Positions 7,399-42,620 of a DNA stretch of 64,000 nt are shown piece after piece. This DNA is from a virus (Duplodnaviria > Caudoviricetes). A program made the translations under genes and the position numbers. The first letter of the stretch is position 1. Each line of letters opens with the position of its first letter. The stretch is taken from positions 32,001-96,000 of the IMG/VR virus record IMGVR_UViG_3300022217_000003; one strand, written 5' to 3'. A model generated the notes under the pieces. It had not been told where the DNA came from and ran no database searches. It was given only the letters and a program-made list of their open reading frames with translations.

Positions 7399-7496
7399 TG
7401 GGATGCGGACAGGACTCGAACCTGCGACAAGAGATGCCTATTCTTACTCTTATTGCTACGTAGACATTGCGTTTAACCAACTTCGCCACCGCATCC
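7399..7496 (-). tRNA. Non-canonical tRNA (His-like body, anticodon undetermined, enlarged anticodon loop)
   Basis: GGATGCGG/CCGCATCC 8-bp acceptor (G-1:C73-like); GCG-AAGTTGGTTAAA-CGC D arm; GCAGG-TTCGAGT-CCTGT T arm; ATGTCTA/TAGGCAT stem with a 20-nt loop. Confidence 0.6.
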
Positions 7497-7506
7497 ATAT
7501 TAACAA

Positions 7507-7595
7507 AGGGACGAGGGGGATTCTAACCCCCATAGGATACTGATCAGATTTACTCCGCCACATCATTGGTGCGTTTTAATTTTCGCCATCGTCCC
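7507..7595 (-). ncRNA. tRNA-like domain 1 (pseudo-tRNA)
   Basis: GGGACGA/TCGTCCC acceptor; GCG..CGC D stem with a G-less loop; GGGGG-TTAGAAT-CCCCC T arm; irregular anticodon region. Confidence 0.55.
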
Positions 7596-7610
7596 TCATT
7601 AGCAATATCA

Positions 7611-24508: not shown

Positions 24509-25514
24509 AACTAGACACGGTTGACATTTTCAGTTTCCTATTCATATTATCTATATCCATACCTAATTCCATACAATCTTTTTTAAGATTAATATTCTCC
24601 TTTATTAATATTTTGTTACATATAAAAAGCCCTACGGAGATAACAATTAAACTCAATATAAGTATATCTTTAATCATTTTAAAAACGATGGGCAATTGCC
24701 GACTACCTTTCTCAATGGTCTCAGGTCTTTAACGGGCATACCAAATATATGTTTCCTTATCCTTTTGCAAAATATCATCCGCCAATCTTTATCTCTAGGC
24801 TTAACCAATCTTGGAGGTATAGACATATCATAAAACTTACCCATCCCAAGATGTTTGGAAAGCTGTTTTAATGATTTATACTTCTTATTACAGTGTTTGC
24901 ATGGAATCATTTATGCCTCCCTGTTATTTTATTTGCTTCTTCCCAATTTGATTTAAAAAACTCTTTTATTTCATATTCTTTATTGCTATAAATACACATT
25001 GAAACAAGGGTTATTACCAATGATAATACACTACCTGTCACTAATCTTTCCCATATCACAAATTTTGTAAATATAAAATATCCTGGCAATGCTCCCCACA
25101 AAAAAACAACACAAAAAACAGGCACAGCCCAACTCCATTTAATTACAAACCATACTCCCTTTAAACTATACATACCAAATTCCCATATCTTCAATCCTAT
25201 AAATACACATATAGTACATATTAATTTCATATTACTTCACCTTTTTATCTTTCTTCTTATTTTAATTTCTAAACCAAAATTTCCACATTATTAAATAAAT
25301 AGCGGTTACAAAAATAAATGAGAATATAGCAGATCCTAAGCAAAGTGTATGGTTAATAATCTTGAAAAGGCTAACAATTAACCATCCCAATACTGTGGCT
25401 GAATATAAAATCCAAAAATTCATTTAACCTCCTTTATTATAATAAAAGAAAGACCTGCCAGCCTTGCGGATACCAATGGTCATATATATCATTACCTAAA
25501 ACCTTTGCCAAGGA

Positions 25515-25612
25515 TTTAATCTATCTTTAAGATTTAACGTTTTAATACTTAAACTTTAACAGCTTAATCTTTGAACTCTATAACTTTAATCTTTAAGTCC
25601 TAAACTTTAAAG
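25515..25612 (-). repeat. Imperfect tandem 7-8-nt repeats (consensus NTTAAAG)
   Basis: CTTTAAAG TTTAGGA CTTAAAG ATTAAAG TTATAGAG TTCAAAG ATTAAGC TGTTAAAG TTTAAGT ATTAAAA CGTTAAAT CTTAAAG ATAG ATTAAAT. Confidence 0.85.
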
Positions 25613-25656
25613 TTGGTGGATAATAAACCCTACCCTTGGGTGGATCTTATAGATCC

Positions 25657-25729
25657 AATAAGTAACGGGACTCGAACCCGAAACACTTGGTTTTCAAGAC
25701 CAATGCTCTACCAATTGAGCTATACTTGT
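25657..25729 (-). tRNA. tRNA with TGA anticodon (nominal Ser) but short variable loop; no encoded CCA
   Basis: ACAAGTA/TACTTAT acceptor (1 mismatch); GCTC-AATTGGTA-GAGC; TTGGT-CTTGAAA-ACCAA; CGGG-TTCGAGT-CCCG. Confidence 0.8.
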
Positions 25730-25808
25730 TAATTTTCAGTGGGAATATTAACCCAAATCCCCAGGGAGACATATGTTTATGATTTTCGGCAGATCCTCCT
25801 TATTTATT

Positions 25809-26441
25809 TTATACTTCTATATCTGTTTTTGAATTACTTTCGCTTAATGCGAAATCAATTTCATTAATAAATATATCAATTTCCTTTTCCATTTTTTCGA
25901 GCTTGTCCTTAACGCCTATAGGATCAATCTGGTTGAAACTATTGTTTTTGAAAAATGGGTCGGCAACATTGCTATATGTTTTTTCGTCTACTTTTTTATC
26001 CCCGCCAAGATTTTCAGATACCATTCTTTGGATATCTTCATCTAATTTTTTATTTTGCGTATCTTCTTTGGTTCTTACATCAGTATAATTTTCCAACATA
26101 CGGGTGTATAGCAATCTGTCATACTGTATTGAGTCTTTTCTGTCAATTGATTCTGCTACGGTATAGGTTTTTCCGCCTACTTTAATTTTTGTTTTGGCAT
26201 TCGATTCCATAATAGCAGCTTTAATATTTTTCCTGCGGGCAATAAGGTCAACGATAGAATCATATTTCGCTTTCGCATCCGTATTAAATTTTTCCTTGGT
26301 AACGCCCTCAATAATTGTCTGGTTCTTGCGTTCTTGATAAACATCAATAAACGTAGATCCTCCAACTTCTTTTCTGATTCTTGAGTCAAGTAGCTTTAAT
26401 TCACTCAAAGCCCTTGTTACACTCATCTTTTGTTTTTCCAT
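25809..26441 (-). CDS. Coiled-coil protein, possibly DIP1984/DUF6847-like
   Basis: MSVTRALSELKLLDSRI...IMESNAKTKIKVGG.TYTVAESI...IDFALSESNSKTDIEV (two related SNxxT.I motifs). Family resemblance is from memory. Confidence 0.7.
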   Translation of the reverse strand: MEKQKMSVTRALSELKLLDSRIRKEVGGSTFIDVYQERKNQTIIEGVTKEKFNTDAKAKYDSIVDLIARRKNIKAAIMESNAKTKIKVGGKTYTVAESIDRKDSIQYDRLLYTRMLENYTDVRTKEDTQNKKLDEDIQRMVSENLGGDKKVDEKTYSNVADPFFKNNSFNQIDPIGVKDKLEKMEKEIDIFINEIDFALSESNSKTDIEV

Positions 26442-26674
26442 TTTTAAATTCCTCCTTTTATATATTATATTTTTCTCATATCTTTTTTATTAACTTTAAT
26501 ATATCTAAATTCATTTCTTTTTAAAAATTCCCATTTAGGATCGCAATAATAATTTACCAAATCTTCAACTTCGGACAAGGTTGAGCAGGCATCAATATCG
26601 CCTTCTGATTCTATATTTCCCTTTTTATCTACAATAAATAATATATACATATCCCATCCTTTTTCATTTTATCA

Positions 26675-26703
26675 AATATACTAAAATATTTAGTAAAAGT
26701 CAA
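26675..26703 (-). promoter_or_regulatory. sigma70-type promoter upstream of the coiled-coil/ncRNA unit
   Basis: TTGACT-17 nt-TATATT. Confidence 0.8.
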
Positions 26704-31244: not shown

Positions 31245-32210
31245 TCAGCTTGAATCTAACTCTTCTAAGTTATCTATATCAACAGATTTTGCGTCATATT
31301 GGTTATGCACATCGTCTGGAACAAAGTTATTAAGGTCTTCTTTTTTCTTTAATGTTTTTACTATAATTTCAACTTGACTGCCTATAAATCCAGGTTGAGA
31401 TTTATGTTTATAAAATTTCTCGTCTTTATAAACATAATCCAATATTTCCTTATTTTTTTCAAAAGTATATAGCCTTCTCATTTTTTTTATTCCATTTTGA
31501 TCTTTAACCGCAAGTGCAGATGACACAGAGCCATCCTTTTTCTTTCTTTCACATAATATATGACCGAAAGCTTCTTTATTTTTCTTATTCCAATATTCTA
31601 ATAGCTCCCTATACTTATCATCTACAGAATCAGCCTCTCCCAACCGCTGCATAAGCTCGTTTATTCTCTTCTTTTGATTTTTAATAACGGTGTCTTTCTT
31701 TGAGTTTTCGTCTTGAAGCCTTTTAACCTCTCTTTTTAAAAAATCATTCTCAGATAAAGCGGTTTTTTCGCTGTCCTGAGACTTCAATAATTGATTTTCT
31801 TTCTGTAAATAGGCTTTCCTGAGCTCAAACGGATGCATATCACGTATTTCATTATCAACCTTATCTACTTTGTCTTTTCTATCTTTGGTTTCGGGAGTTG
31901 ATTCGGTTAAATAATCGTTTCTTATTATTCTCCACGTTATATCTGGCACATTAATTAATTCACACAGCCCATTATAATCATATTTGCTCCGGAATCCATA
32001 TATATACCATAATTCTCTCTCTGACACGCCTATATCGACTGCCACTTGTGGCAGGATCTTGGTTATACCGTTACTTTTTTCTTTATATAGCCTTACCCCT
32101 ATCTCCCATTTAAATTTAATGAATTCTATATTTGACTTTTTCCAATAACTATCACTCATCTCCTTTATATCTGATATTATATTTTTATAACTACTGTCTC
32201 TTACTTGCAT
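31245..32210 (-). CDS. Hypothetical protein (helical N domain plus coiled coil), replication module
   Basis: 321-aa ORF between the initiator-like and loader genes. Confidence 0.65.
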   Translation of the reverse strand: MQVRDSSYKNIISDIKEMSDSYWKKSNIEFIKFKWEIGVRLYKEKSNGITKILPQVAVDIGVSERELWYIYGFRSKYDYNGLCELINVPDITWRIIRNDYLTESTPETKDRKDKVDKVDNEIRDMHPFELRKAYLQKENQLLKSQDSEKTALSENDFLKREVKRLQDENSKKDTVIKNQKKRINELMQRLGEADSVDDKYRELLEYWNKKNKEAFGHILCERKKKDGSVSSALAVKDQNGIKKMRRLYTFEKNKEILDYVYKDEKFYKHKSQPGFIGSQVEIIVKTLKKKEDLNNFVPDDVHNQYDAKSVDIDNLEELDSS

Positions 32211-41820: not shown

Positions 41821-41828
41821 GGAAAACT

Positions 41829-42620
41829 TTAATTAATTTCTAAACTAATCATGGGGACTTCCATAATTTTAGGATGATAAAATCCATGCCCGAAGCAGTC
41901 GTCTTCTCCCATGCAATCACCGTGATCTCCCATTATGAATATATGTGCAGGCTTGGGTATAAAATCAATAACTTTCATAATATGCTTATCAATATATTCT
42001 AAACAATTGGCCTGTCCCCTTATTGTTTTATCCTCCCCTCTATATGGCAAGTGAGTCGAAGATACATTCATAAAAAAGAACAATGGTTTATCATTAGGAA
42101 TATTTATAGATTCTATCTTTTTAATCTGATTTTCCAATCCATCAAAATACCTTTCTGAAAAACATTCTTCCCAATAAAATTCAGAAAAATAATTACTCCA
42201 AAATTCTGATGTCTCTGTATCTGCCCTAAACCATTGAACCCCTCCTATACCCAATGTATAATACCCATCTTTTTCAAAGCCGTTGGGCAAAGACTTCGCC
42301 TCTGGAACAGAGTACAGAGAATCATTGTAATATTTTAATTTATTTGAAGGGATATACAAATTAGGAGTTCTTAAAGTAAAAACCCTCCTTTTTTTAGAAA
42401 ATGGGAACTTTAAATTTGGATAACTTGGCAATATACCAGCTTTCAAAATAGCAATGTGGGAAGGAAGAGTATAAGTTGCATTTGAACCAACTTTTACCCA
42501 ATTATTATATTGATCTTGATAGTTATAAATTAATTCTTTAAAATTAGGAACTGATGCTTCAATAGAAGAATCATATCTTAAAGAATCCAAAGTTATTATT
42601 GCTATATTTTTATTCTTCAC
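41829..42620 (-). CDS. Alkaline phosphatase/sulfatase-superfamily hydrolase (STM4013-like)
   Basis: ITLDSLRYD, YTLPSH, IGGVQWF, N...THLP, GDHG...GED...GHG...V.VP. Confidence 0.8.
   Translation of the reverse strand: MKNKNIAIITLDSLRYDSSIEASVPNFKELIYNYQDQYNNWVKVGSNATYTLPSHIAILKAGILPSYPNLKFPFSKKRRVFTLRTPNLYIPSNKLKYYNDSLYSVPEAKSLPNGFEKDGYYTLGIGGVQWFRADTETSEFWSNYFSEFYWEECFSERYFDGLENQIKKIESINIPNDKPLFFFMNVSSTHLPYRGEDKTIRGQANCLEYIDKHIMKVIDFIPKPAHIFIMGDHGDCMGEDDCFGHGFYHPKIMEVPMISLEIN

Follow-up and report, generated by a model that had tools for sequence, protein, structure and literature searches.

The DNA analyzed here, referred to as the window, is a stretch of 64,000 nucleotides (positions 32,001 to 96,000) from a 175,779-bp IMG/VR virus record (IMGVR_UViG_3300022217_000003; Duplodnaviria, Caudoviricetes). 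Its G+C content is low, and its large open reading frames (ORFs) are nearly all found on the minus strand. One of these encodes a 210-aa protein of the PHROG 1491/T5.085 family, referred to below as the partner protein, and directly behind its gene lies the structured RNA that is the other subject of this report. The 385 nt behind the gene hold no minus-strand ORF of at least 30 aa, except for one that overlaps a tRNA. The RNA is composed of a closing stem (P1), a 5' pseudoknot, an inserted tRNA, 13 units of a short repeat, referred to as heptads, and a 3' domain (Table 1).

Table 1. Features of the module and its upstream flank, in the order in which the minus strand is read.
Feature	Positions in window	Strand	Remarks
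Sigma-70-like promoter candidate, TTGACT-17-TATATT	26675..26703	-	10/12 positions match consensus
61-aa ORF upstream of partner gene	26465..26650	-	not a conserved part of the module; no family match
Partner protein gene, 210 aa, PHROG 1491/T5.085 family; helical bundle with small beta-sheet head (predicted)	25809..26441	-	
Whole structured RNA, ~360 nt	25444..25803	-	starts 5-9 nt past stop of the 210-aa gene
P1 closing stem, 5' strand; ends in invariant G (G-U pair before AAAA)	25787..25803	-	
J1 AAAAUC, 5' strand of long-range pseudoknot	25781..25786	-	pairs with GGUUUU 25498-25503
5' H-type pseudoknot: CCC, GGGGAU, loop with GGGUUAA, UUCCC	25741..25768	-	
tRNA, anticodon UGA, short-variable-arm body, in variable region	25657..25729	-	Rfam tRNA model and ARAGORN
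Local hairpin GGAUCU-AUA-AGAUCC (GGAUCUAUAAGAUCC), variable region	25642..25656	-	single-sequence fold only
Heptad array, 13 units (CUUUAAAG, UUUAGG, ACUUAAAG, AUUAAAG, ...)	25514..25612	-	
Invariant UUAAAUCC and P7 5' strand CCUUG	25509..25519	-	
GGUUUU, 3' strand of long-range pseudoknot	25498..25503	-	
P8 hairpin, GGU/ACC stem, 13-nt loop	25478..25496	-	equivalent hairpin covaries in sister subtype
P7 3' strand CAAGG, then invariant C-U junction	25462..25466	-	
P1 closing stem, 3' strand (UGGCAGGUCU...), after invariant GGC-U junction	25444..25460	-	

In the window, P1 consists of 14 contiguous pairs, or of 17 with one mismatch, and it contains the 13-bp end-pairing stem described in an initial annotation that was made from the letters alone. 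Immediately inside P1, the J1 segment reads AAAAUC-AUAAAC (25786-25775, minus strand). The P7 stem, in which CCUUG (25513-25509) pairs with CAAGG (25466-25462), encloses both the GGUUUU strand and the P8 hairpin. The tRNA scores 61.6 bits against RF00005 (cutoff 29), and its anticodon was assigned as UGA by ARAGORN; it carries a serine anticodon, yet has a short variable arm and a total length of ~73-75 nt. The units of the heptad array measure 6-11 nt, mostly 7-8. The initial annotation had also pointed to the tRNA insert, to about 13 consecutive repeats and to a repeat tract unlikely to code, and these features hold up well, with no same-strand ORF of at least 30 aa crossing the tract. The fold of the whole RNA has a z score of -3.29, and its minimum-free-energy structure recovers P1 and the local hairpins. 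A search of sequencing runs listed one DNA dataset, a sediment metagenome that is possibly the source sample, and no RNA dataset. A pairing of AUAAAC with GUUUAU around the tRNA can form in the window; no covariation test separated this pairing from chance in the A/U-rich repeats.

Homologous loci, 80 in number, were obtained from IMG/VR using an alignment-based scan, and an IMG/VR scan with the single protein as the query gave no matches. In T5-like AKFV33, Bacillus phage Hobo and Lactococcus phage AM3, the gene is followed by an unannotated gap of 380-500 nt with the same layout. The stem search was anchored on the junction signature (5' ...G/AA..., 3' ...GC/U..., with the junction at the slash) and a threshold of at least 12 pairs was applied. 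Under this threshold, P1 was found downstream of the gene in 72 of 83 homologous loci, as compared to none of the 83 shuffled sequences and one of 79 upstream controls. The distance from the stop codon to the start of the RNA has a median of 10 nt, the length of the RNA ranges from 256 to 606 nt (median 356), and the 60 unique RNAs contain 51 distinct P1 sequences. A covariance model of the 3' domain matches 50 of 63 sources, most of them outside its seed, and recovers several loci at which the signal of the stem search was weak. All of its matches are on the same strand as the gene and downstream of it, and its sole match in the 64-kb window is at 25446-25530 (71.6 bits). According to the stem search and the 3'-domain model combined, the RNA is present behind almost all homologues for which sufficient downstream sequence exists. 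Both the closing stem and the repeat tract called for by the initial annotation were thus found downstream of homologues.

The helices of the RNA vary in sequence in a manner that preserves their pairing. Across the 16 RNAs of type A, which include the window, 98.7% of the alignment cells assigned to P1, the CCC/GGG stem and P7 are paired, as compared to 67% after shuffling; this level was reached by 0 of 500 shuffles, and sliding the alignment lowered it to 32-43%. Cells in which both partners have changed number 116 vs 35. In the sister group, type B, P1, P7 and P8 all reappear in the RNAalifold consensus, where the heptads stay single-stranded. The CCUUG/CAAGG stem proposed by the initial annotation, here P7, covaries among the relatives. 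Its suggestion that GGUUUU might form a pseudoknot with the 5' GAAAA is borne out by compensatory variants of the J1-GUUUU pairing in other lineages (CGAUA/UAUUG, CUGUA/UAUGG, CUAU/AUAG, ACGCU/GGUGU and UAAACU/GGUUUA, with UC/GG in the window). In the 5' pseudoknot, the stem flanking GGGUUAA has a completely different sequence among more than 12 RNAs when these are compared one by one. Column-wise covariation was not obtained in MAFFT alignments for P8 or for stem S2 of the 5' pseudoknot because loop lengths vary, and the evidence for S2 is therefore per-sequence. On comparative grounds, these substitutions show that the RNA fold has been kept by selection.

The association of gene and RNA was also followed in the opposite direction, with a pattern drawn from the RNA only (TTCGATAAAATCC, 45-75 nt, GGCTG) that was found at 64 places in IMG/VR. 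At 26 places P1 reaches at least 12 pairs, and in each of these the gene lies 3-103 nt upstream; at three further places the gene is present and P1 is shorter. The other 35 have neither P1 nor gene, and are therefore regarded as chance matches. Searched for from either side, gene and RNA prove inseparable at the level of sequence. Bacterial-genome assemblies contain 28 homologues, many of them on long Bacillaceae contigs; P1 is present in 23 of the 28, and the 3'-domain model adds 3. The genes around these bacterial copies are ordinary and mutually unrelated, indicating that the constant unit is one protein plus one RNA. In phages, the module is embedded in tRNA arrays: 49 of 80 loci have tRNAs within 1.5 kb, 163 in total and every one on the strand of the module. 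The start of a tRNA falls 0-10 nt past the 3' end of the RNA at 7 of 54 loci, which points toward tRNA-processing enzymes as probable helpers in its release. The coupling of a protein gene to a dedicated structured RNA, as claimed initially, is strongly supported by the homologues, by covariation and by this linkage, and comparative analysis could not make either the RNA or this coupling more secure.

The periodicity of the array is shared by the relatives. In 57 RNAs, autocorrelation is 0.41 at lag 7 and 0.38 at lag 14, as compared to 0.29 after shuffling, and AARG motifs are preferentially spaced 7, 14 or 21 nt apart. The consensus of the unit is W-U-Y-A-A-A-G, and the window has the WUYAAAG type. 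Between lineages the motif drifts, to UCAAAG or UCAAU and, in G+C-rich lineages, to UCAGGAC or CUCAACG; such drift with lineage fits a reader that is encoded in the module and co-evolves with its RNA better than it fits a universal host factor. A standard tRNA inside the RNA is rare (2 of 60 relatives), and where the window has its tRNA the variable region of other members holds tRNA-like pieces or simple hairpins. Four loci of our set (L006:2121-2469, L007:2139-2496, L077:1215-1585 and L150:1989-2330) seem to carry a tRNA-like module in circularly permuted form, in the order T-arm, 3' acceptor strand (with CCA in L006 and L007), 5' acceptor strand, D-arm and anticodon-like arm. At L005 and L015, a lone T-arm-like hairpin stands immediately before the heptads.

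The partner protein matches the PHROG 1491 profile with an E-value of 3.1e-63 (residues 3-210, profile positions 2-209 of 211). The label of that family, 'tail fiber protein', finds no support here, and most records say hypothetical. Searches of Pfam and PADLOC gave no match for the 210-aa protein. Using tblastn, homologues were found in 745 phage records, including T5-like Demerecviridae (T5.085), Bacillus Bastillevirinae, Lactococcus 949-like phages, phages of Vibrio, Pseudomonas and Klebsiella, and Erwinia jumbo phages. Among 1.84 billion representative proteins, a profile search returned 3,801 clusters (50% identity) at E<=1e-3, and the length of the family members is nearly always 200-220 aa. 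One protein of 474 aa (P0123) contains two profile stretches, the second spanning residues 269-474, suggesting that a copy was duplicated in tandem or that two copies were fused.

AlphaFold2 confidently predicts (pLDDT 91.8) an elongated bundle of helices with a small beta-sheet, in which residues 49-95 make up a basic segment with a net charge of +7. Predicted as a homodimer, the protein gives an ipSAE of 0.62 vs 0.00 for the best control, with at least 94% of contacts shared by three runs and a pLDDT of at least 87. Among solved structures, 20 of 30 homodimers and 1 of 23 single chains reached the mark used for this call, and the partner protein is probably a homodimer, as judged from these models. 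The top structural match is a DIP1984 structure, 3kdq, with a VIA-align Z of 10.1 over 151 of 152 residues (next-best 7.8) and a Foldseek probability of 0.98 (E 0.023). The rmsd of this alignment is high (7.5 A), and the relationship is therefore a distant one; 3kdq is ~60 residues shorter than the partner protein and is itself uncharacterised. The likeness to DIP1984/DUF6847 offered by the initial annotation is real as a remote similarity of fold, and the sequence signal is below threshold. The NCBIfam family DIP1984_fam (NF038048) matches at 14.2 bits (E 0.035), below its cutoff of 70, the E-value of a profile search is 0.072, and DUF6847 has come up as an Atlas lead only (0.87).

An identity of the partner protein with Rad, the anti-retron factor of the T5 family, was considered and rejected. 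Rad is ORF75 of T5-like phage SP15, with 189 aa, and the SP15 homologue of the partner protein is E0157_083, which lies beyond ORF70-75 (anti-defence fragments F6-F8). In the SP15 genome (L085, AP019559), an unannotated RNA gap follows E0157_083 at 41821-42262.

In Rfam 15, no family matches the window RNA beyond its tRNA insert. The sister subtype has a partial counterpart in RAGATH-27 (RF03100), an orphan candidate small RNA of 86 positions that corresponds to the 5' domain of type-B RNAs: it includes their P1 5' strand, their CGAAAAC and UAAAC motifs, and their 5' pseudoknot. Its matches to type-B RNAs are full-length and fall at their very start, in the first ~85 nt (73.9 bits in L077, 53.8 in L026, 45.6 in L033, 39.8 in L053, 38.7 in L076 and 38.5 in L024), and none of them reaches the gathering score of 76.1. 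These full-length matches indicate that the 5' third of the sister subtype is already in Rfam as an orphan motif. In the Rfam model, the P1 strand is left unpaired, and the heptads, the 3' domain and the partner protein are absent. In the type-A RNA of the window, no match to RAGATH-27 was found at E<=10; CCGAAAAUCAUAAAC is followed there by the CCC/GGGUUAA pseudoknot, which reproduces the layout of the RAGATH-27 consensus with another sequence type of pseudoknot. The literature searched contained no description of T5.085, of the module RNA or of a function for DIP1984/DUF6847, and no mention of 3kdq. An overlap is possible with the 10,006 unnamed candidate viral RNAs of Fremin et al. 2023 (PMC10690425). 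The initial claim that no known system is laid out in this way therefore needs to be narrowed: that no named system combines such a gene with a heptad RNA is strongly supported, while the 5' domain of the sister subtype was already on record as RAGATH-27.

Several known systems share individual traits with the module. GOLLD (RF01998) and ROOL (RF03087) are likewise large, ornate RNAs of phages and prophages that sit beside tRNAs or enclose them, and are reported to form RNA-only assemblies (PMC12286853). They have no dedicated protein, whereas the window RNA is smaller and has a single-stranded heptad array; neither model matched anywhere in the window, nor in L001-L003 and 19 other loci. The pair of Ro60/Rsr and YrlA (RF02553) also joins a protein gene to an adjacent noncoding RNA on the same strand, with a terminal stem and a possible tRNA-like module, and Ro60/Rsr-Y RNA pairs are likewise carried by phages. 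However, the TROVE domain was not found in the partner protein using Pfam, and Y RNAs are without a heptad array. YrlA has no match in the window, and the tRNA-like part of L007 matches weakly (28.9 bits vs a gathering score of 69). In TnpB/IscB systems, an orphan structured RNA (omega or reRNA) lies immediately 3' of its partner gene, as here, but the partner protein of the module is a helical bundle without a RuvC or other nuclease domain, and no guide-like variable 3' end is evident. RAGATH-18, an orphan motif, proved to be the guide RNA (IS607 TnpB reRNA) of a TnpB encoded just upstream (PMC11061315), which sets a precedent for reading the adjacency of gene and RNA as a ribonucleoprotein.

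Systems in which protein meets repeated RNA provide a second set of comparisons. Type III toxin-antitoxin systems (ToxIN, CptIN and TenpIN), found in phages, plasmids and chromosomes, couple a tandem-repeat RNA to one protein. Their repeats are ~36 nt long and lie upstream of the gene behind a terminator, whereas those of the module are 7 nt long, lie downstream and are enclosed in a closed fold; the ToxN/AbiQ endoribonuclease fold was not found for the partner protein using Pfam, PADLOC or structure search. TRAP and HutP bind one protein subunit per short periodic RNA unit, and HutP sites repeat every 7 nt. Both are beta-rich rings acting on mRNA leaders, unlike the helical dimer predicted here with its dedicated RNA.

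We interpret the locus as one member of a widespread two-part module, in which the gene of a ~210-aa helical protein is directly followed by an RNA with two pseudoknots, and infer that dimers of the protein may assemble on the heptads as a ribonucleoprotein, the reading with the best support, to which we give an even chance. Gene and RNA would be co-transcribed, and the RNA would be excised from a polycistronic transcript, partly by tRNA-processing enzymes. In the conserved fold itself, P1 and the J1-GUUUU pseudoknot clamp the 5' pseudoknot and the 3' domain together, and ~10-15 single-stranded heptads (WUYAAAG here) are displayed between them as a loop. The protein made from the same transcript could then bind the heptads, with one protomer or dimer per unit, and the RNA would set the size and stoichiometry of the particle. 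Such a particle may act on RNA or tRNA metabolism during infection, and it might, at a guess, be a counter-measure to host attack on tRNAs. Carried to its full extent, the proposal is one of RNA-templated assembly, in which about a dozen DIP1984-like dimers are strung on the heptads of a doubly knotted scaffold released from tRNA-array transcripts and, in the service of large phages and some Bacillota, act on tRNA or RNA metabolism, or blunt defences that target tRNAs. This fuller version is put forward tentatively, and is more likely to be wrong in some part than right in all.

Some observations weigh against a ribonucleoprotein. No recognised RNA-binding domain was found in the partner protein using Pfam and NCBIfam, and the protein is near neutral overall, with a pI of 6.5 (family median 6.1). 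The heptads of the window can pair among themselves in the single-sequence fold, and the adjacency of gene and RNA, taken by itself, would also agree with an RNA that regulates or stabilises the upstream mRNA. That the RNA acts alone in the manner of GOLLD and ROOL, perhaps by self-assembly, with its linkage to the gene reflecting shared transcription or co-regulation, is unlikely. Like those RNAs, which make RNA-only assemblies as described above, it is large, phage-borne and associated with tRNAs or encloses one, and the UUAA and CUUAAG of the window heptads are self-complementary. However, the CUCAAAG and UCAGGAC heptads of other lineages are not, and an RNA acting alone does not readily explain a linkage to one protein family that is near-absolute both ways, in phages of Gram-negative and Gram-positive hosts and in bacterial chromosomes, or a start that lies so close behind the stop codon. 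A cis-acting 3' untranslated region (UTR) that stabilises or autoregulates the upstream mRNA, for example through binding of the protein to its own message, would account for the position of the RNA, which in every case is found immediately 3' of the gene on its strand, with neither a promoter nor a terminator separating the two. Yet the known 3' stabilisers manage with far less than ~360 nt, two pseudoknots and a repeat array of 100 nt, whole tRNAs are tolerated in the variable region, and the tRNAs that abut the 3' end at some loci predict excision. We regard such a 3' UTR as very unlikely.

A toxin-antitoxin-like or sponge function, in which the repeat RNA sequesters either the adjacent protein, following type III logic, or a host single-strand RNA binder or nuclease, is quite unlikely in our estimation. 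Tandem RNA repeats do adjoin a protein gene, and the module stands alone in variable chromosomal contexts, once beside a gene of the TOTE conflict system. The preferences of RNase E and RNase Y resemble the end of the heptad, G followed by (A/U/C)U. On the other hand, neither a ToxN/AbiQ-like nor any other nuclease fold was found, PADLOC gave no match, the units are 7 nt as compared to ~36 nt and lie downstream of the gene instead of upstream, and the motif drifts between lineages that have common hosts. The short, periodic and A/T-rich repeats also resemble iterons, and might be double-stranded DNA binding sites of an origin or a partition site. This DNA-level reading is rejected because the covarying helices include G-U pairs, which are functional on one strand only; the strand and the position relative to the gene are moreover fixed, and P1 spans the repeats, which leaves a DNA element barely credible.

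The protein family of the module is large and includes the member from model phage T5, in which the gene is annotated as 'hypothetical' or, baselessly, as 'tail fiber', and the RNA behind it is left unannotated. If the pair does form a ribonucleoprotein, it would be a common and unstudied component of large-phage biology. The tRNA regions in which the module is located have become known for counter-defence functions, and the same reading, if true, would assign a function to the orphan motif RAGATH-27 and offer an initial clue to the DIP1984/DUF6847 fold.

The promoter that the initial annotation placed upstream of the small ORF and the 210-aa gene is present as a consensus match only. Promoter-type consensus sites number 21 in this AT-rich region vs 13.5 expected, and the candidate is weak evidence because such sites are common there. 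The 61-aa ORF was considered as a third component and rejected, since it shows no similarity to T5.086 and the bacterial loci have no conserved upstream gene. The TOTE gene mentioned above encodes a primase-helicase (PF22548, E 2e-105) and lies ~0.9 kb from the chromosomal module of Pseudobacteroides cellulosolvens (L153:4037-5611), at which a SUKH-1 family gene is found upstream. At another locus, a RAGATH-18 RNA (L077:1912-1985, 71.5 bits vs a gathering score of 44.9) follows the module ~330 nt downstream, and at L076 a truncated RAGATH-36 match (L076:1-65) lies upstream, indicating that the module shares neighbourhoods with other orphan RAGATH RNAs. RNAs with the same P1 and 3' domain were also seen on IMG/VR contigs labelled as giant-virus bins, GVMAG (L059, L061, L079 and L129). 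Elsewhere in the window (7400-7596, minus strand), ARAGORN reports two tRNAs of unusual length, Arg(acg) with 96 nt and Ile(aat) with 91 nt, which may hold introns or be non-canonical.

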